DNA of 64,000 nt from an archaeon (GTDB lineage: Archaea > Aenigmatarchaeota > Aenigmatarchaeia > GW2011-AR5): assembly GCA_028279825.1 (NCBI GenBank), contig JANQNA010000008.1, forward strand, positions 35,173 through 99,172, in the 5' to 3' direction. How positions within the stretch are numbered: the first letter of the stretch is position 1; each line of letters opens with the position of its first letter. Position numbers and translations under genes: made by a program. This document shows positions 4,028 to 63,827 of the stretch, piece by piece. Under the pieces are notes generated by a model. The model was not told the origin of the DNA and searched no databases. It saw only the letters and a program-made list of their open reading frames with translations.

Positions 4028-5399
4028 TTATAAAGAGAAGTTTGGTTTTAACGTAAAGACAGATACTTTTCACGAGAAGAAAGGTTTATCGGAAAAAACA
4101 GTCAGGGAGATATCCGAGATAAAACAGGAACCTGAATGGATGACAAAGTACAGAACAGATGCGTTAAAGGTGTTTCTTAAGAAAAAAATGCCAAAGTGGG
4201 GAGCCAATCTTGAAAGCATTGATTTCGAGAAAATCATTTACTATCTAAGTGCTACAAAGAAGAAGGCAGCTACATGGGATGATGTACCTGCCGAAATCAA
4301 GAATACATTTGAGAAACTGGGAATACCGGAAGCCGAGAGAAAAATACTTGCCGGTGTCGAGGCTCAGTTTGATTCCGAGGTTGTTTACAGCAAGATACGG
4401 GAGGATTTAGAAAAACTGGGTGTTATATTCTGTTCCACCGATCAGGCACTGAAGGAACATCCCGAACTGTTCAAAAAATACTTTGGTACTGTTATACCGG
4501 CAGGGGACAACAAGTTTTCTGCACTCAACAGTGCTTTCTGGTCTGGCGGATCGTTTGTTTACGTGCCAAAAGGCGTTGAAGTTCCCATACCTCTGCAGGC
4601 TTACTTTAGAATAAATTCCAAAGATCTCGGCCAGTTTGAAAGAACACTTATCATAGCCGATGAAGGGAGTCGTGTACACTACATAGAGGGATGTACTGCG
4701 CCTATCTATTCATCGGACAGCCTTCATGCAGCTGTTGTTGAGGTGATTGCACTGCCTGGTGCACATGTTCGTTATACAACATTGCAGAACTGGTCAAATA
4801 ATGTTTACAATCTTGTCACGAAAAGGGCCCACGCACACAAAGATGCTATTGTTGAGTGGCTTGATGCAAACATTGGGAGTAAAATAACTATGAAATATCC
4901 AAGTGTTTATCTGCTTGGTGAGAATGCCAAAGCTGACATGATGTCTATAGCCTTTGCAGGTAAAGAGCAGTTACAGGACACAGGATCAAAGGCGGTACAC
5001 ATGGCAAAGAACACGAGCTCTTCCATAGTCAGCAAGTCCATCAGTAAAGACGGCGGCAGGACAATGTACAGAGGTCTTGTCAGAGTGAACAAGGGCTGCA
5101 AAGATTCAAAGTCAAACGTCCGGTGTGATGCTTTAATTCTGGATGAAAAATCCGCTTCCGATACCATTCCTTACATGGAGATAAACGAGAAGAAGGTTAA
5201 CATGGGGCATGAAGCAACCGTGGGCAAGATTGGCGAAGAGCAGCTCTTTTATCTACAGAGCCGTGGCCTAAGCGAGGCGGAAGCTGCTGCATTGATAGTG
5301 CGCGGTTTCTTTGACTGTTTCACAAAACAACTTCCACTGGAATATGCCGTAGAGTTTAATCGATTGATAGAAATGGAAATGGAAGGTAGTGTAGGATGA
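4011..5399 (+). CDS. sufB: Fe-S cluster assembly protein SufB
   Basis: 462 aa; conserved SufB blocks [34 protein letters not shown] and C-terminal beta-helix region; overlaps sufC end by 17 nt. Confidence 0.9.
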
Positions 5400-6436
5400 T
5401 GTTGCCGCTTCTAAGCAAGATAAGAGAGGAATCTATGAACAAATTTCTAGGTATGAATCTGCCGCAAGAAAGAGAAGAGGACTGGAGATATACGACAATA
5501 GACAACATTGAATTTACAGCAGGCGACAGCGAGATAATGATGAGTGATGCACCCGAAGGCGTGATATTTACGGATATTCTTACTGCAATGAAAGAACATT
5601 CGTCTATGATCGAAAAACATATGAAAGTAAAAATAATGGACAAATTTTCTGCGTTCCACTACGCAAACCTTGTGAACGGCATATTCATCCACATTCCTGA
5701 CGAAAAGAGTGCTGAACTTTCCTCTGTAATAAACGGTGCTTCACACACAGTCATTGTTCTGGGAAAGAACTCAAAATTAAAATACACGGAGGAATATTCC
5801 GGCACAGGATTAACTGACGGTGTTGAGATCTTTGCCGGAGAAGACAGCGAGGTCAACCTTACCTCTGTACATAATTCAAAGAAAACATTTTCATTCAAAC
5901 ATGCTGCGCTTGAACGCTCTGCCAAACTTGACTGGACTGTTGCATCTGTTGGTGAATTCCACAGAACAAGGATGGATATTGATCTCTGCGGTGAAGCCGC
6001 ATCTTCAGATATCAAGTGTGCATTCAAGGGTAGAAATGAACAGCATAAGGATTTTCTTGTAACAACAAATCATATCGGGCGTGATACTCAAAGCAACGTG
6101 CTTGGAAAAGGTATTCTTGATGACAGATCAACATCAGTTTTTCGTGGCATGATAAACATAGCAAAAACAGCACAGAGAACCGATGCGTACCTGTCTTCAA
6201 ATACTCTGCTATTAAGTGAGGAGGCAAGGGCAAACAGCGTTCCAAGTCTTGTTATTGATACTGATGATGTTAAAGCAAAACATGGTGCAACTACGGGGCA
6301 GATAGATGAAGAACAACTCTTTTATCTACAGAGCCGTGGCCTCAGCGAGGCACAGGCCGAGGAATTCATAGTCCAGGGATTCTTTGAACCGATTGTAAAC
6401 GACAAACTAAGGGGTGTATTGAATGGAAGTACGTGA
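5396..6436 (+). CDS. sufD: Fe-S cluster assembly protein SufD
   Basis: 346 aa SufB/D paralog with C-terminal ...[30 protein letters not shown] block shared with SufB; ATGA overlap with sufB. Confidence 0.8.
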
Positions 6437-9521: not shown

Positions 9522-10061
9522 ATGTGGAACCTGTTTTTATTAAGACACGGTGAATATGATCCTGTTTCTGAGGGAAAACCGATGACTGGCAAAGGCAGAG
9601 ACCAGATACGTTCTGCTGCCAGCTACGTGAATCAGGTTTTGGACGGTTCAGATGCCTGCTTGGTTTCTTCACCATCTGACAGAACATTCGAAAGTTCCTG
9701 TATACTGGCTCAGGAAATGGGCATAGAAAGGGAAAGAATTTACCCCTCAACGATGCTGATTTATAAAATATACAAAGAATACTTCGGCCCGGAAGGAGTC
9801 TCAACATTTATTGATGTTATGAGAAGAAGAAGTGACAACCTTGTGTTAACAACACACAGCCCGGTTCTGGGAACGTTTCCTGCTCATTTTTTATCAGACA
9901 GATTCGGCACCACATCAGAAGACATGGAGAGGATAGGCTATGACCATGCCACTGGAAAGCTACACATTGGCTTTGGCCAGGGAATTCATATTGACATGAA
10001 GACGGGTGATTTCACGCTGTTTCCTCATAGCCAGCGTGCAGAAGAAGGTGTTTCTTCGTAA
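9522..10061 (+). CDS. histidine phosphatase superfamily protein (SixA-like)
   Basis: LLRHGEYD catalytic RHG motif at N-terminus and downstream LVLTTHSPVLG (conserved His) typical of SixA/PGAM fold. ORF track extends to 9261 but the 5' 260 nt lack similarity; start uncertain. Confidence 0.55.
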   Translation: MWNLFLLRHGEYDPVSEGKPMTGKGRDQIRSAASYVNQVLDGSDACLVSSPSDRTFESSCILAQEMGIERERIYPSTMLIYKIYKEYFGPEGVSTFIDVMRRRSDNLVLTTHSPVLGTFPAHFLSDRFGTTSEDMERIGYDHATGKLHIGFGQGIHIDMKTGDFTLFPHSQRAEEGVSS

Positions 10062-10726
10062 CATTTGTCTCTATACTCACAGTTCCTGCACATCCATATC
10101 TTGTCGTGTTTTGCCCTTGACTCAGGATCAGGCAATGCATCCATTTTCAGGAGCTTGTGCAGAGCTTTGAAACGGTTTATCACCATCTCTGCTTCTTCAG
10201 GATTGTAATCTACCTTGAATACCTTGCTCTTCAGGTTCTTCTTGTCTATGTATAACAGCACACCGTCGTGTATGTTCATGATATGCATATAGAGCTGCAA
10301 CTGCATTGCGTTGTAGTCGGCTGGTTTGTTAACGAAATCAACACTGCCAGTTGACTTAACCTCCATGAGAATGTTTTTTCCGCTTGCCTTCACGAGTATA
10401 ATATTATCTACCCTGCCAGATATGACAAAATCATCGACCTCTTTCTTGAATGGTGCTTCCGCCGATACCAACATGATTTCAGGATTCTTGTCGCTGGACA
10501 AGATCTTGACGACAAGGTCGTGCATTATGTTGCCAACTTCGAATATCTTCAGTAAATCAGGCCCGACAGAACTTGGAAATTTGTAGGAATACCATACCTT
10601 TCTCATGCATGTGCCTATTTCCGAAGGATAGTATTTGCCTATTGTTTTCGGATAAGATTCCCTGCGCAAATAATTGTCAACCATCTCGTTAAAATCAATC
10701 ATAACAAATCTATGACTATAATTCAT
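10025..10726 (-). CDS. Cas4-like PD-(D/E)xK nuclease with Fe-S cysteines (RecB-family exonuclease domain)
   Basis: N-terminal Cys (PSEIGTC), DxxISGRVD...ILMEVK core, QLQLY motif and C-terminal CRNCEYRDKC triad: the four-Cys + PD-(D/E)xK architecture of Cas4/DUF83. Confidence 0.65.
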   Translation of the reverse strand: MNYSHRFVMIDFNEMVDNYLRRESYPKTIGKYYPSEIGTCMRKVWYSYKFPSSVGPDLLKIFEVGNIMHDLVVKILSSDKNPEIMLVSAEAPFKKEVDDFVISGRVDNIILVKASGKNILMEVKSTGSVDFVNKPADYNAMQLQLYMHIMNIHDGVLLYIDKKNLKSKVFKVDYNPEEAEMVINRFKALHKLLKMDALPDPESRAKHDKIWMCRNCEYRDKCYEETPSSARWL

Positions 10727-18249: not shown

Positions 18250-19110
18250 GTGAATTTTATCAATCAAGTTCTTAAATTTGAGAAACAATATATTAATAGA
18301 GTTATGTTGTTTGATAAACCACAGGATATAGAAGCCTATAAGATTTGGCTACAAAAATACCACGGGGAAGATGTAGAAAAAATAAGAAAATGGTTTGAGT
18401 TGGTTTCGAAAGATATTAAAGACAAATTTGAAAATTCTAGTTTTTGGACAGAATTGTTGGAAAAAAATCGCACATATTCTTATGATTATAAGAAAGATAC
18501 AGGTTGTGATCTTTTGATTTCAAGTTCAAATCCCACTGTATCAACAAAAGATTTTGACTCCTTACTTGATAAGAGTTTGAGACTTAATATTTTAAATAAT
18601 AAAAATTGGCCTGAGCCGCCCGACGATGGCTGGTTTCTCCCCAATAACTGGTTTTCAAGAATTGGAGACATTATTAGAACTAGAATCATTGTTAAATATT
18701 TAGATGGTGTTGAGTTTCTTATACCCAGAATAGAAACCCTTGCAAGAGAAAACAAGATTGTCTTTGAAAATCCAATTTTTAAATCAGACGAAGCAGGCTA
18801 CTATGCTGTGCACTTATATGTATGTGACACCTTTGAGGTTTATGGAATAGATTTTGATACTGAAAAAATGAAAATTAAGATAGAAATTCAATTGACAACA
18901 CAGCTGCAGGAAATTATATTAAAATTATTGCATAAGTATTATGAAGCTAGAAGAAAAAAAACTAAGAATAATGAGGAAATTCCATGGCAATGGAATTATA
19001 AAAATAACGAGTTCGCTACGAACTATCTTGGTCATATACTTCATTATATTGAGGGTATGATTGTTGATATTAGGCAGAAACAGGAGAGTGATTCAAATGG
19101 AGCAATTTGA
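18250..19110 (+). CDS. RelA/SpoT-like nucleotidyltransferase domain protein (candidate alarmone synthetase/toxSAS-like)
   Basis: C-terminal half carries the RSH synthetase hallmark blocks: SRIGDIIRTRIIVKYLDGV (cf. DIxGIRIIv), DEAGYYAVHLYV (cf. GYrSlHvvv), IKIEIQLTTQLQE (cf. vEIQIRTxxqhxWAE). Gene lies in a ~28% GC island. Confidence 0.55.
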   Translation: MNFINQVLKFEKQYINRVMLFDKPQDIEAYKIWLQKYHGEDVEKIRKWFELVSKDIKDKFENSSFWTELLEKNRTYSYDYKKDTGCDLLISSSNPTVSTKDFDSLLDKSLRLNILNNKNWPEPPDDGWFLPNNWFSRIGDIIRTRIIVKYLDGVEFLIPRIETLARENKIVFENPIFKSDEAGYYAVHLYVCDTFEVYGIDFDTEKMKIKIEIQLTTQLQEIILKLLHKYYEARRKKTKNNEEIPWQWNYKNNEFATNYLGHILHYIEGMIVDIRQKQESDSNGAI

Positions 19111-35318: not shown

Positions 35319-35411
35319 ATATTATTTTTCTTTTCTTTTTCTACAAATTTTGTGCCTCTTGGGAATCTTTAAATAGTATTGACTGTATAGTAGTAACAAG
35401 GGTGTGGAAAA

Positions 35412-35651
35412 ATGTCGTTCAGAGAATTTATGGGAAGATATGCGAAACCCACTTTGGGTGCGGCTGTTGGTGCAGTTACTCTTGCTGCTCTTGATCCGTT
35501 TATATCACAGATGCTGGACATTCCTTATGATTCGATGACTGTTGCTATAGGTGCTGTTGACGGCGCGTATTCGGGTGCGGTTCTAGCGGCGAACCCTAGA
35601 TGCGCTCAAAGAGAAGTACCGAGAAGTGAACCCCCAGTCTATTTGCTTTAG
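35412..35651 (+). CDS. small membrane protein
   Basis: 79 aa ORF, Gly/Ala-rich hydrophobic. Confidence 0.35.
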   Translation: MSFREFMGRYAKPTLGAAVGAVTLAALDPFISQMLDIPYDSMTVAIGAVDGAYSGAVLAANPRCAQREVPRSEPPVYLL

Positions 35652-35702
35652 ATTCTTTTTCTACAAATTCTGGTTTAAAAAGGTTGGTGGAATAACCTGA
35701 TC

Positions 35703-36080
35703 ATGGCAACATTCGGTGAATTCTTTGATCGTGTCGCAAATACAAGATTTGAGGATGCGCTTAATTTTTTTGAAATGTGGATAGGTTCAGCTACAGAAGA
35801 CGAATGGACTTCTTATCGGCAACAGGAGCTCACACCTGAACTTGTTCGGCGTTTTGCCGTCGATGTCACAAATTACTTCTCGAGTATATCAAGATATTTG
35901 AAGGAAGGTGCATACAGACACCTTACACTAACTTACAGTACATTCATACGTGGAGTTCATGAACATGCCACAGATCTTGGTGTTGTTATTCCTTTGAGAG
36001 ATGTCAAAGGACCTGCAGGTTATGAGGCTCAGATGAGATGGCTGACTTATGAGAGAGTACCGGAAAACTTTCAAGAATAA
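35703..36080 (+). CDS. hypothetical protein
   Basis: 125 aa ORF. Confidence 0.4.
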   Translation: MATFGEFFDRVANTRFEDALNFFEMWIGSATEDEWTSYRQQELTPELVRRFAVDVTNYFSSISRYLKEGAYRHLTLTYSTFIRGVHEHATDLGVVIPLRDVKGPAGYEAQMRWLTYERVPENFQE

Positions 36081-46440: not shown

Positions 46441-47088
46441 ATGAATTTTAATATTAAGGATTTTATGACTACTGACTTCTCATATTGGATAGGGCTTGTT
46501 CAAAGTGATGGTGGATTGTGTAGATGGGAAAAAGATAAGAAAATTCGCTATAGATTAGACTTCAATAACACAAGTTTGTTGTTAGCAAAAAAATTTCAGC
46601 TAGGTACAAGATACTTCAATGCAAATGTCAAGATATATAAGTTCAGATCAAAGAGAAATCAATATAGTTGTCAGTTTGTTGTTAACTCTGTTATTGATAT
46701 CTTGAAAACAATGAATATTGTCTACAAAAGGAAGGATTTTATACCACCATATTGGATAATAGAAAATCCTAAGTTTTTTGGATCTTACTTGGCTGGTTTG
46801 ATAGATGGTGATGGTACTGTTAGCATAAAACGAAAAAAATACCCACAATGTAGAATTAGGATATTGTCTCCTGTTAGACAAAATAAATTATCAAATCTTA
46901 TTGGTAATTTCATGAAATGTAGTGCTTTTGTTTATGAGCATAATGCGGGCCATACAACTTGCCCCTGCTTAGAATTCTATGTGACACCTAAGAATTCTGC
47001 ATTTATTAAGACTTTTGTTTTACCATATTTGAATTTAAACTACAAAAAAACAATGATTAAGAGGTATATGAAAACAAGGGGACTATAG
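46441..47088 (+). CDS. LAGLIDADG homing endonuclease (double-motif)
   Basis: Second motif SYLAGLIDGDGTVSI is canonical; first motif degenerate (YWIGLVQSDGGL); last 10 nt incl. stop overlap the 5' end of tRNA-Trp. Confidence 0.65.
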   Translation: MNFNIKDFMTTDFSYWIGLVQSDGGLCRWEKDKKIRYRLDFNNTSLLLAKKFQLGTRYFNANVKIYKFRSKRNQYSCQFVVNSVIDILKTMNIVYKRKDFIPPYWIIENPKFFGSYLAGLIDGDGTVSIKRKKYPQCRIRILSPVRQNKLSNLIGNFMKCSAFVYEHNAGHTTCPCLEFYVTPKNSAFIKTFVLPYLNLNYKKTMIKRYMKTRGL

Positions 47089-59854: not shown

Positions 59855-61078
59855 ATGTGTCTAGAAGATACAAACAGGGCTCTGAAAAACGTGAGAAATG
59901 TTTTCATGGCGTTCAACTGCAATATTGACAATATTGTTAAAGTCAGAAACCAGGACTTTCCTGAGGATATAGAAAAGGGTATACTTTATTCTATGAGGTA
60001 TGGTGCTTCTGAAAGTGTTATGAGCAAAGAAACAGAGGATTCGCTAAAGCGAATCCGTCCGGATGAGCAACGAATGGGCGGGCAGATAGGGATAATGGCC
60101 AACTTTCTGGCGATGCTGGGGCTGCGCCCCATAGTTTACACACCGCTGCACTCCACACAGCAGAATAAACTTTTTTCCAAAGGAATCAGGCTTATAGGCC
60201 CAAAAAACATGAAAGACAAAAAGATAAACTGGATCTTCGAGTTTGAAAAGGGTCAAATCTTTCATCGTGTAAAGGCTCGCACAACAAACAGGTTTATAGC
60301 TGCTTCGCGCCCGGACAAATTCAGGATGAAGCCAATAAAGCTTCCCGATAAATATGACTGTGCAATTCTTTCAGGGTTTCATGGGATTAAACCCCGCTAC
60401 AGGGACGGCAGAACTCACAGTGACCAGTTCAAGATAGCTGCCAGAATGATAGAGAAGATAAAAAGGAAGAAGAAACCTATACATCTGGAGATTGCGTATA
60501 CGAAAAACAAGAAGATAATGAACGGGATACTGAGGTTGGCTAAGTCTGTAGACAGTATTGGTTTAGACGTTCCGGAGCTTGTCAACATACTGAACTCAAC
60601 AGGCGACAAAGGACTGGCCAGGGCAATACACACAACACGTGACGTAAGATACGTTTACGATGGTCTGAAGAAGATGCAAAAGAGAATCAAAACAAAAAAG
60701 ATACACATACATGCATATGGATATTACATAGCTCTGGCAAAGGAAGACTATCACATAAAGCCTACAGAGATTAGGAAATCTATGCGTTTCGCGTCCATAG
60801 TTGCAGCTGCCAAAGCCGGTCATGGACTAAAATCCAAAAACGGTATTAAGAAGGGTTTGAACTATCCGGTTTCCGGCATAGGAGAGAAAAGCGGCAGAAT
60901 TCTGAGGGAACATCTTCGCAGGAGGGGTATTGAAATGGAAGACGGGATCGCCAGAGATAAAGATTATGTTATATTTGTACCGATACCCCTGGTGAAACGC
61001 GTGAAAGGTACTGTGGGTCTGGGAGACATTATTTCTTCCAGCATATTTACTGCGGAAGTGGGCTATTCATTGGAATAA
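59855..61078 (+). CDS. ADP-dependent sugar kinase (ADP-PFK/ADP-GK family)
   Basis: N-terminal FNCNIDNIVKV, MGGQIGIMANFLAMLG, and C-terminal VKGTVGLGDIISSSIFTAEV (GxGD ribokinase-superfamily motif); start may be the internal Met at 59906. Confidence 0.75.
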   Translation: MCLEDTNRALKNVRNVFMAFNCNIDNIVKVRNQDFPEDIEKGILYSMRYGASESVMSKETEDSLKRIRPDEQRMGGQIGIMANFLAMLGLRPIVYTPLHSTQQNKLFSKGIRLIGPKNMKDKKINWIFEFEKGQIFHRVKARTTNRFIAASRPDKFRMKPIKLPDKYDCAILSGFHGIKPRYRDGRTHSDQFKIAARMIEKIKRKKKPIHLEIAYTKNKKIMNGILRLAKSVDSIGLDVPELVNILNSTGDKGLARAIHTTRDVRYVYDGLKKMQKRIKTKKIHIHAYGYYIALAKEDYHIKPTEIRKSMRFASIVAAAKAGHGLKSKNGIKKGLNYPVSGIGEKSGRILREHLRRRGIEMEDGIARDKDYVIFVPIPLVKRVKGTVGLGDIISSSIFTAEVGYSLE

Positions 61079-61079
61079 A
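61053..61079 (+). repeat. 27-bp perfect direct repeat copy 1 (3' end of ADP-dependent kinase gene)
   Basis: GCGGAAGTGGGCTATTCATTGGAATA(A) recurs at 61352..61378. Confidence 0.8.
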
Positions 61080-61373
61080 TTAATTTTGAGAAACAGGCTC
61101 TCTTCTTAACCAAGCTTTAGAATTACCAACTGCACTGAAAACAATAAAAGGATACATTAGCGTTGCTGCGGTTGCCTCTTTATAGTTTCCTTCTTTCCAA
61201 AGACCGATGATCATTCCGCCAACTTCATTGAGAGAAGCACCTATCTCAGTTTGATATGTCATATCACTTAAATGTCTATCAAATACTTTGTATCGTCCAC
61301 TTTTATTTGGTCTGAACATAGGATTAACAGTATTGAAAACATATTTAAAGCATGGCGGAAGTGGGCTATTCAT
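61080..61373 (-). CDS. hypothetical ORF filling the segment between the 27-bp direct repeats
   Basis: 97 aa ORF whose N-terminus is encoded by the reverse complement of repeat copy 2; coding status doubtful. Confidence 0.25.
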   Translation of the reverse strand: MNSPLPPCFKYVFNTVNPMFRPNKSGRYKVFDRHLSDMTYQTEIGASLNEVGGMIIGLWKEGNYKEATAATLMYPFIVFSAVGNSKAWLRREPVSQN

Positions 61374-61378
61374 TGGAA
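61352..61378 (+). repeat. 27-bp perfect direct repeat copy 2
   Basis: GCGGAAGTGGGCTATTCATTGGAATAG; encodes the same AEVGYSLE-stop as the kinase C-terminus. Confidence 0.8.
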
Positions 61379-61412
61379 TAGCTATATATACGAACCTGGA
61401 AAATTAGTTATT

Positions 61413-62279
61413 ATGCTTGTTAAAGGTGCAAGCGTACTCAAGGCTGCTAAAAAAGGCAAGTATGCTGTGGGCGCATTCAATATAAACGATCTGGAGATGC
61501 TGAAAGCTGTTACTGTGGCGTGTGTTGAAGAAAAAGCTCCAGTCATAATACAAACTACTGAGAAAGCTATCAAATATGCCGGCATTGACTATCTTGTCGG
61601 CATGACACGTGTGGCTGCTACGGAAGATATTCCAATGGCTCTGCATTTTGATCACGGAAAGGATCTAAATCTCATGAAACAATGCATAAAGAAGGGTTAC
61701 ACTTCTGTCATGTTTGACGGATCTAAGCTTCCATTCAAAAAGAATATTGCTCAAACGAAGAAAGTTGTTGCCATGGCCAAAGGCAAAGCTTCAGTGGAGG
61801 CGGAACTTGGTGTGATATTTGGCAAGGAAGATTCTGTCAGCGCTTCGAAAGGACTTTATACAGATCCAAAGATGGCCAAAGAATTCGTGAAGAAGACAAA
61901 AATAGACAGTCTGGCTGTGGCTATTGGAACCAAACACGGGCTTAGTAAAAAAGAAATTGCACTTGGAAAGAAGAAAGGTCACCTAAAGCTTAGATTTGAT
62001 ATTCTGAAAGAAATACATGAAGACGTTAACGTGCCGCTGGTTCTGCATGGTGGATCTGATGTTCCTCATTCAGATATCAAAAAATGTATTAAGCTCGGTA
62101 TCTGTAAGGTGAATATAGACACAGATCTGCGGGTTGCTTTCACTGATTTTGTGAAGAAATTTTCTAAGGAACATCCTGATGTTTATGATCCAAGAGAGTT
62201 TCTGGGTCCCACGGTTCATGCAATGAAGAATGTTGTCAAAATAAAGGTGAGGGAATTTGGCGCGACTCAGAAAGCGTAG
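61413..62279 (+). CDS. class II fructose-bisphosphate aldolase (FbaA/tagatose-bisphosphate aldolase type)
   Basis: MLVKGASVLKAAKKGKYAVGAFNINDLEMLKAV...PVIIQTTEKAIKYAG; His-rich metal site (LHFDHG, LVLHGGSD). ORF track gives 61272..62279; start moved to the Met preceding the conserved block. Confidence 0.75.
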   Translation: MLVKGASVLKAAKKGKYAVGAFNINDLEMLKAVTVACVEEKAPVIIQTTEKAIKYAGIDYLVGMTRVAATEDIPMALHFDHGKDLNLMKQCIKKGYTSVMFDGSKLPFKKNIAQTKKVVAMAKGKASVEAELGVIFGKEDSVSASKGLYTDPKMAKEFVKKTKIDSLAVAIGTKHGLSKKEIALGKKKGHLKLRFDILKEIHEDVNVPLVLHGGSDVPHSDIKKCIKLGICKVNIDTDLRVAFTDFVKKFSKEHPDVYDPREFLGPTVHAMKNVVKIKVREFGATQKA

Positions 62280-62925
62280 TGCTGTTGTGAATTTCAAGAC
62301 TTACAAGAAAGGTACTGGAAGGAGTGCACTTCGTCTTGCAAAAAAACTTTCTAAGGTTTCTAAAAACAACGTGATACTTGCCGTACAAATTGCTGATTTG
62401 TATAGATTGCATAAAATGAAAGTACCTGTTTTTACACAGCATATTGACCCGATAAAATACGGTGCATTCACCGGGCATGACCTTGGCGAGGCACTGAGGG
62501 ATAACGGCGCTGACGGTGTCCTGATAAATCATTCAGAGGACAGAATGCTGCCTAGAGACATAAAAGAAACGATAAAAATTGCGCATAGATTAAAGCTGAA
62601 AACAATTGTTTGTATTGACAAACCAAAACTTGCCAAGCGCGTGGCAAGAATGAAACCTGATATAATTGCTATTGAGCCGCCTGAGCTTATAGGAACGGGT
62701 ATATCTGTGTCAAAGACAAAACCGGAAGTTGTTACAAAAACTGTGAAAGCAGTAAAATCCGTGAACAAAAAAATAGATGTGCTGTGCGGTGCAGGAATAT
62801 CTACGAAGGAAGACGTGAAAAAAGCAATAAGACTCGGATGCAAAGGTGTATTAGTGTCTTCAGCCATAGTTAATCATAGAGAACCTGAAAGACTGCTTAA
62901 ATCATTTTTGAGGGCGATGAAATGA
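62257..62925 (+). CDS. tpiA: triosephosphate isomerase (archaeal short type)
   Basis: VVNFKTYKKGTG N-terminus, catalytic INHSEDR (His) and AIEPPELIGTG (Glu), 222 aa. Confidence 0.8.
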   Translation: MARLRKRSAVVNFKTYKKGTGRSALRLAKKLSKVSKNNVILAVQIADLYRLHKMKVPVFTQHIDPIKYGAFTGHDLGEALRDNGADGVLINHSEDRMLPRDIKETIKIAHRLKLKTIVCIDKPKLAKRVARMKPDIIAIEPPELIGTGISVSKTKPEVVTKTVKAVKSVNKKIDVLCGAGISTKEDVKKAIRLGCKGVLVSSAIVNHREPERLLKSFLRAMK

Positions 62926-63827
62926 ATGTAAGAGAAATGCTGGAGAATATTCCTGGCGGTATAGAAGAAACGATAAAGAAAAAAGCACCGAAGATATCCG
63001 GCAGAATAGACAATATAGTTGTATGCGGAATGGGTGCATCAGGCATAAGCGGTGACGTACTTAGAGACTACCTGAAATACGAATCGAAGATACCTGTCAT
63101 AGTTTCCAGAGCTACCAAACTTCCTAAATTCGTTGGGAAAAATACACTGGTTTTTGCAATAACATATTCTGGCAAGACAGAAGAGACACTGTCTTCCATA
63201 AAAGACGCTAAAAGGAAAAGGGCCAAGCTTGTTGTTATATCGTCTAAAAAGATGGGTGGCAAATCTATACTTGTTCCTAAAGGTCTTTTACCAAGAATGG
63301 GATTACCATACCTGTTCTTCTCAATTCTAATGGTACTGGAAAAATCAAAGATTGTCAAAAGACAGGCTTCGTATGTAAAGGAAACGATAAAGGTAATGAA
63401 AAAACTTGACAAAGCAAAGGTAAAACAAATGGCGGATAAAATAAACAAGACACCGATCTTCTATGCACCGGAACATTTTGCATGTGTTGTGACAAGAATG
63501 ATGACACAGGTAAACGAAAACGCCAAGATGGTTTCGCACTATGGTGTGTTCACAGAACTGAATCATAATGAAATCGAGTCAAAAGATTTCAACAAGTTCA
63601 ATGTTGTTATTCTTCGGGATCGTGAAGATAAAGAAACGCAAAGATTCATCAAACTTGCAAAGCACATAATCGGCAGACATATAGAAATAAAGTCAAAAGG
63701 AAACTCACTGATGGCCAGAATGTTTTACATGATCTACTTCTGTGACTGGATAAGTTACTTTTTGGCTTTGAGAAGAGGAACAGATCCACTGAAGATGCCT
63801 GCAATAGATTACATCAAGACCCATTAA
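62922..63827 (+). CDS. bifunctional phosphoglucose/phosphomannose isomerase (SIS domain)
   Basis: SIS motif VVCGMGASGISGD, 301 aa size typical of archaeal PGI/PMI; ATGA overlap with tpiA. Confidence 0.7.
   Translation: MNVREMLENIPGGIEETIKKKAPKISGRIDNIVVCGMGASGISGDVLRDYLKYESKIPVIVSRATKLPKFVGKNTLVFAITYSGKTEETLSSIKDAKRKRAKLVVISSKKMGGKSILVPKGLLPRMGLPYLFFSILMVLEKSKIVKRQASYVKETIKVMKKLDKAKVKQMADKINKTPIFYAPEHFACVVTRMMTQVNENAKMVSHYGVFTELNHNEIESKDFNKFNVVILRDREDKETQRFIKLAKHIIGRHIEIKSKGNSLMARMFYMIYFCDWISYFLALRRGTDPLKMPAIDYIKTH

Follow-up and report, generated by a model that had tools for sequence, protein, structure and literature searches.

How does the end of a glycolytic gene come to stand twice in an archaeal genome, once in its own reading frame and once in front of the promoter of the next gene? 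The locus that raises this question lies in a 64,000-nt stretch of contig JANQNA010000008.1 (GenBank assembly GCA_028279825.1, positions 35,173 to 99,172 of the forward strand), referred to here as the window. Between the gene for an ADP-dependent phosphofructokinase/glucokinase (ADP_PFK_GK, 407 aa; 59855-61078, plus strand) and that for a class II fructose-bisphosphate aldolase (FBA, 288 aa; 61413-62279, plus strand), 277 bp of DNA are bounded by two identical 26-nt sequences, the first of which is the kinase 3' end. This DNA is an insertion that carries one small gene and that left both neighbors with the sequence they need. How it arrived is a harder question, for which we tentatively favor recombination at the short duplicated site.

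An exact repeat around 277 bp

The direct repeat, GCGGAAGTGGGCTATTCATTGGAATA, is found at 61052-61077 and again at 61355-61380, with 303 nt from start to start and 277 nt (61078-61354) separating the copies. Copy 1 (attL-like, or left target duplication) consists of the last 26 nt of the kinase before the final stop-codon base and codes for AEVGYSLE and supplies the first two bases, TA, of the stop codon. Copy 2 (attR-like, or right target duplication) is noncoding with respect to the kinase and sits between two divergent TATA boxes. Immediately after the 26-mer the copies part: an A follows copy 1 and completes the kinase stop codon TAA (61076-61078), a G follows copy 2 to give TAG, and at both edges the similarity ends sharply. 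The first-pass annotation of this DNA had described a perfect 27-bp repeat, spaced by 299 nt, around a segment of about 270 bp. The repeat and the segment are real and the copies do end in TAA and TAG, but the identity stops one base earlier, the segment is slightly longer and the spacing does not hold when measured from start to start. When up to three mismatches are allowed, the 26-mer has two matches in the 64-kb window and none in 100 dinucleotide-preserving shuffles; exact direct repeats of at least 17 nt, lying 100-2000 nt apart, were absent from 20 locally shuffled windows.

The 3' half of the repeat forms, together with the next G, a palindrome (CTATTC-ATTG-GAATAG, 61366-61381) with a DNA hairpin of -3.3 kcal/mol (z = -3.6), which is absent at the orthologous site of the relative described below. 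It could be the core-type site of a recombinase or a product of chance.

An empty site in a relative

The evidence for an insertion comes from L001, an 11-kb contig of a metagenome-assembled genome (GCA_964432525.1) that carries the nearest homologue of the window kinase (P0003, 64% identical). The gene order is that of the window, kinase-FBA-TIM-PGI/PMI, and the kinase-FBA spacer is 32 nt long (CCTATATATACAAAGATCGGAAATTAGTTATTATG), with the site present as a single copy. Removal of 303 nt from the window, that is, one repeat copy plus the 277 nt, leaves a kinase-FBA spacer of 31 nt, and the L001 spacer has its orthologue in the window sequence just behind copy 2, GCTATATATACGAACCTGGAAAATTAGTTATTATG. 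In a global alignment of the four-gene region (~4 kb, ~68% identity) there is a single large indel, 302 nt that are absent from L001 directly after its kinase stop codon. Since the only large gap falls exactly there, the segment is an insertion accompanied by duplication of its target. Relatives sharing the occupied arrangement, which the first-pass annotation had named as evidence against an insertion, were not found, and a scan of genome contigs with the window kinase gave no match.

No base differs between the two copies, but L001 departs from the window repeat at 4 of the 26 orthologous positions, and the composition of the insert has not drifted towards that of its host. Both observations point to an event that was probably recent and took place in the lineage of the window.

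What did the insertion do to the genes on either side? On the left, copy 1 keeps the last eight codons of the kinase, and the stop codon is restored by the first inserted base. On the right, copy 2 ends 2 nt ahead of the FBA TATA box (TATATATA, 61383-61390, plus strand), which lies 22 nt upstream of the ATG and, being conserved in L001, marks the original downstream flank. The 26 nt that originally stood directly upstream of this box are kept by copy 2, so that the promoter context of FBA is unchanged, including the putative position of the BRE. The BRE is the TFB-recognition element of archaeal promoters, and its position here is placed from general knowledge of such promoters.

A single small gene

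The inserted DNA, absent from L001, has a GC content of 0.35 against 0.41 for the window, and its GC skew is negative on the plus strand, opposite to that of the flanking plus-strand genes and as expected for minus-strand coding. A mechanically called open reading frame (ORF) of 97 aa, reaching to 61373, starts inside repeat copy 2. Homologues align from its Met19 and the similarity reaches the C-terminus, so the gene most likely spans 61080-61319 on the minus strand, with Met19 as the probable true start and a product of 79 aa (MFRPNKSGRYKVFDRH...). A TATA-like box, TTTAAATA (61342-61349, minus strand), is found 22 nt upstream of this ATG. Read on the minus strand from the edge of copy 2, the insert is made up of 5 nt, the TATA box, 22 nt, the 79-aa ORF, its stop codon and 2 nt; it is one complete gene with its own predicted promoter and nothing else. 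The gene is convergent with the kinase, a single nucleotide separating their stop codons, and its TATA box and that of FBA are divergent and 33 nt apart.

An exhaustive HMMER search identified a 75-aa protein, P0112, which is 44% identical to the 97-aa ORF over 63 residues (19-81; E 2.3e-9 library-wide), and a profile search added a second homologue, P0114. Between these two proteins dN/dS is 0.21; synonymous sites are saturated in the comparison with the window gene. The inserted gene is, on this evidence, a member of a small conserved protein family under purifying selection. The antisense ORF, which had been called doubtful at first, is thus a real gene, though probably of 79 rather than 97 aa.

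Beyond this family the protein stands apart. A word-indexed protein search returned only the 60-aa call of the same ORF in the source genome, and no match was found in Pfam, PHROGs, PADLOC, NCBIfam or, by profile search, the PDB. An AlphaFold2 model built on the three-sequence alignment is helical and of low confidence (predicted local distance difference test, pLDDT, 54), and a Foldseek comparison of the model with viral structures gave nothing below E = 1. No Rfam family matched in 60800-61600, and neither blastn nor tblastn detected a second copy of the insert in the window. Three further hits were set aside. Two came out of the exhaustive search, P0111, a repeat protein of 1564 aa, and P0113, an ORF of tandem repeats, and look like repeat-inflated or weak matches; the third, a genome-contig match to L006 from a gammaproteobacterial metagenome-assembled genome, is spurious, as no ORF supports it. 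As an observation apart, P0113 (132 aa) consists of three tandem repeats of ~52 aa; the inserted gene product resembles it weakly in its own C-terminal part (EATAATLMYPFIVFSAVGNSKAW; 45-50% over 22-29 aa).

The only homologues lie on two metagenomic contigs: P0112 on L004 (4.3 kb, GC 0.34), which holds co-oriented small orphan ORFs and a weak TrmB-like winged-helix match, and P0114 on L005 (1 kb). The ATG of the L004 gene is preceded at 22 nt, the spacing of the window gene, by the box TTTATAAA, and the same box is present in L005. The two contigs have in common a module of ~345 bp with 87% nucleotide identity (L004 2312-2665, L005 536-893), which begins ~74 nt before the ATG and ends ~40 nt after the stop codon, and their flanks are unrelated even as protein. 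Because they share the module but not its surroundings, the inserted gene behaves as a movable module elsewhere too. The left edge of the shared module, CGTAGCTAA, supplies an upstream ORF with its stop codon in either contig, but the ORF is not the same one and the frame differs. No direct repeats were seen to flank the module, and a weak 12-nt inverted pair occurs in L004 only. The 272-aa and 170-aa proteins of L004 have no match in phages or IMG/VR, nor does the former in plasmids; the orphan-gene content suggests that L004 may be mobile-element-like.

Composition points in the same direction as these contigs. The fraction of G and C at third codon positions (GC3) is 0.24 in the inserted gene, against 0.47 in the kinase and 0.38 in FBA, and by its composition and the context of its homologues the gene looks foreign.

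Other direct repeats in the window

A second structure of similar anatomy occurs at 35333-35669, in a block of orphan ORFs between an isochorismatase and a CTP synthase gene. An exact 17-bp direct repeat, TTCTTTTTCTACAAATT (35333-35349 and 35653-35669; 17-mer repeats in 0 of 20 shuffles), brackets 303 bp that contain a TTTAAATA box and one Gly/Ala-rich ORF of 79 aa (35412-35651, plus strand). The ORF, unrelated in sequence to the insert at 61 kb, has its stop codon 1 nt before the second 17-bp copy, and that copy ends 4 nt short of the TATA-like box that precedes the next gene (35703-36080).

A further exact direct repeat of 26 nt, CTCTTTTATCTACAGAGCCGTGGCCT, is found at 5244-5269 and 6317-6342, 1073 nt apart. 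It falls in the C-terminal regions of a pair of neighboring ORFs, which by eye resemble SufB and SufD and share a 15-residue peptide. It looks like the result of paralogy or gene conversion and not of insertion.

How was the gene inserted?

The explanation that we favor, at somewhat less than an even chance, is that short-site recombination recently brought a foreign module of one gene to the point where the kinase stop codon meets the FBA promoter, with duplication of 26 bp of target. The kinase 3' end would have recombined with a matching 26-bp attP-like site on a mobile element or a small DNA circle, and catalysis would have been provided in trans by a recombinase encoded elsewhere. The outcome would be a non-autonomous element bounded by attL and attR, like a decayed "cis-mobilizable" element, whose gene would use its own promoter, with transcription running away from FBA and towards the kinase. 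The first-pass annotation had proposed site-specific integration into the gene end. The insertion itself stands; an integrase as its agent is plausible but unproven, and recombination with a mobile element, by an enzyme likewise unproven, is what we infer as the most likely origin.

Several observations weigh against such recombination. A Pfam scan for integrases and transposases, which took in ~45 ORFs of the window, found none in the insert or in these ORFs. The insert has no match in phage and plasmid collections, a search that the first-pass annotation had suggested; IMG/VR yielded no element with the 26-mer or with either of its 20-nt halves, and a degenerate coding version of the 26-mer had no match in JGI metagenomes. 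The boundaries of the L004/L005 module are unlike those of the window insert, so there is no conserved element end. Of the archaeal integrated elements described in PMC6563490 the smallest, at 2.6 kb, is ~10 times the size of the insert, and the insert holds exactly one intact gene with 2 nt and 5 nt to spare, a result that random internal deletion of a kilobase-sized element would rarely leave. Slow erosion of such an element, in turn, sits badly with identical repeat copies and an undrifted GC3. Finally, the empty site is known from one syntenic relative, L001, in which 4 of 26 positions are different.

Could the fragment have been inserted with no recombinase site at all? The main rival, which we consider a rather doubtful but serious alternative, supposes that a short fragment entered at a staggered double-strand break or a transposition-like cut and that nicks 26 nt apart were filled in, leaving a true target-site duplication. 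Such an event needs neither a site-specific recombinase nor a sequence match in the donor, and it would suit the sharp edges of identity and the fact that no integrase, attP partner or conserved element ends were found. The structure at 35333-35669 may be read in its favor as well, since it has the same anatomy with an unrelated repeat and an unrelated 79-aa gene, and in both structures 2-5 nt separate the right repeat copy from a host TATA box downstream; but there is no empty-site control for the second structure. Moreover, duplications of 17-26 bp exceed those made by known transposases, casposases included, for which the duplication is 14-15 bp. The insert lacks terminal inverted repeats and further copies in the window, and a randomly captured fragment would rarely be exactly a promoter and an ORF.

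The polarity of the event could also be the reverse of that assumed so far, with the repeat-flanked gene ancestral and lost in L001 by recombination between the 26-bp repeats. Deletion between direct repeats would yield exactly the L001 arrangement, and there is no outgroup to set the polarity because L001 is the one syntenic relative and the distant kinase loci (L002, L003, L007 and L009) carry different genes downstream of the kinase. This reading is nevertheless improbable: the same insertion is still required, only earlier, and an old insertion would have to account for copies that are identical at 26 of 26 positions while the operon is ~68% identical to that of L001 and the site differs at 4 of 26, and for an inserted gene whose GC3 has not moved towards that of the host.

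It is very improbable that the arrangement is an assembly artefact, in which a short foreign contig or circle sharing the 26-mer was threaded into the contig. The source is metagenome-assembled (157,969 bp), and a graph assembler can make a repeat-bounded loop from a mixed population. A foreign piece would still need an exact 26-nt match to the kinase 3' end, though; NCBI and Logan assemblies both have the ORF in its 60-aa form, and the sequence context is unbroken at the junctions. That the repeat is a chance or functional motif, such as a shared regulatory element, around an ordinary resident gene is effectively refuted by the shuffles and the L001 alignment (no matches are expected by chance, copy 1 is coding and L001 lacks the whole segment), even if the repeat has a small palindrome in its 3' half.

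Comparison with known integrated elements

Recombination at the kinase 3' end would place the insert next to the integrated elements of archaea, for which att sites of 8 to >25 bp (median 17) are described, with 14 of 68 elements in the 3'-distal part of protein genes and 15 of 68 in intergenic DNA (PMC6563490). Integration into the 3'-distal part of a gene with replacement of the stop codon by element sequence is documented among them (PMC6563490). As in these elements, thaumarchaeal ones for example, the insert is foreign-looking DNA between direct repeats that are identical to the target site and of a length within the att range; it sits at a protein-gene 3' end, the stop codon is restored by element sequence and a relative, L001, retains a single-copy empty site. 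The known elements are unlike it in being multigenic, in having an integrase by definition and in size, even the smallest, at 2.6 kb, carrying an integrase (PMC6563490). The insert has 277 bp, one gene, no integrase (its 79-aa ORF being the only one inside) and no known parent.

Elements that retain attL and attR but have lost the integrase are a recognized class in bacteria, the cis-mobilizable elements or CIMEs (PMC5704250). The insert resembles them in that it is bounded by two site copies at the end of a target gene, has attL/attR-like copies but no integration genes, and would be movable only in trans. CIMEs, in contrast, are bacterial, kilobase-sized, decayed remnants with recognizable parents (integrative and conjugative elements), and the insert is archaeal, a single intact gene without a known parent.

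Miniature inverted-repeat transposable elements and casposons also share features with the insert: it is small and non-autonomous with duplicated target flanks, and casposons favor gene 3' ends as well. It differs from them in the lack of terminal inverted repeats, multiple copies, Cas1 and transposase, in the longer, 26-bp duplication and in carrying a complete self-promoted gene. A repeat search found no terminal inverted repeats, and the insert ends, AATTAATTTTGAG... and ...TTTAAAGCATG, are unrelated. A miniature element or another DNA transposon was rejected on the absence of these repeats and of a second copy in the window, and a casposon on the absence of a Cas1-type casposase and terminal inverted repeats and on the length of the duplication.

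A comparison with integron cassettes suggests itself, as these are one-gene units of ~300 bp that may pass through a small circle. Cassette insertion does not duplicate 26 bp of target, however, and this candidate was rejected, there being no inverted repeat or attC-like palindrome in 61078-61354, no integron integrase among the scanned ORFs and no attI nearby. An SSV-type split integrase was likewise discarded: there is no similarity to integrases, the start of the homologues corresponds to Met19 and so lies beyond the repeat, and in a circular form the frame would be closed by a stop codon that lies in the repeat, 3 codons upstream of the ATG.

Because the defining integrase is lacking, the insert is best filed as a non-autonomous or decayed integrated element, and a very small one. 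In workings and appearance it matches the scar of an integration into a protein-gene 3' end, here in a genome that the names of its kinase homologues mark as probably of the Aenigmarchaeota/DPANN group. What is unusual about it is the size of 277 bp, the single intact and self-promoted orphan gene, and a possible second example in the same window.

The glycolytic cluster and other genes

The genes around the insert are those named by the first-pass annotation, and Pfam upholds the calls: the kinase (PF04587, 3e-70) reaches position 429 of 430 of the profile, FBA matches PF01116 at 1.9e-98, and TIM (triose-phosphate isomerase, 62257-62925) and PGI/PMI (glucose/mannose-phosphate isomerase, 62922-63827) follow. 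The description of the cluster as a tight operon fares less well. The genes are clustered, but FBA, and probably the kinase, has its own TATA box 22 nt before the ATG. Across the window, the spacing of strict TATA matches to the start codon peaks at 21-23 nt, and TATA-like boxes 21-23 nt upstream of the start are found for the kinase, FBA, the inserted gene and others. This spacing argues for leaderless or near-leaderless mRNAs and for separate promoters inside the apparent glycolytic operon.

The FBA of this archaeal, probably DPANN, cluster is of the bacterial class II type (PF01116), and this holds for L001 too. Archaea more often use class I-type or bifunctional aldolase enzymes.

Elsewhere in the window, a free-standing LAGLIDADG homing-endonuclease-like ORF of 215 aa (46441-47088, plus strand; Pfam LAGLIDADG_1, 1.2e-6) has a TrmB-type regulator gene on one side and, on the other, an ORF that looks by eye like a radical-SAM enzyme. 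A Cas4/PD-(D/E)XK-like nuclease ORF is found at 10025-10726 on the minus strand (Pfam, 6e-9 and 7e-7), and an ORF with a weak RelA/SpoT domain, at 3.5e-5 below the Pfam cut-off, at 18250-19110 on the plus strand.

Implications

As a trace of mobile DNA the insert is clean but fairly ordinary. It nonetheless offers a case, resolved to the base pair, in which the mobile gene pool of archaea has given one orphan gene to a compact, probably DPANN, genome with the neighboring genes undamaged, and it adds a protein-gene 3'-end insertion site to the very little that is known of mobile elements in this lineage. For the annotation of the locus it means that the gene is real and has 79 aa, not the 60 or 97 aa called before, and that the glycolytic cluster is probably a set of separately promoted genes.

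A broader possibility, which we regard as a long shot, is that streamlined archaea of the DPANN type gain orphan genes singly, as self-promoted cassettes of ~300 bp placed directly upstream of host promoters with duplications of 17-26 bp and without an element integrase. A recombinase acting in trans on mini-circles, or capture at breaks close to promoters, might bring this about. If this were so, the structures at 61052-61380 and 35333-35669 and the ~345-bp module of L004 and L005 would be three footprints of one process. Should the one-gene size prove to be the rule and not an accident, it would amount to an undescribed, cassette-type route of gene gain.

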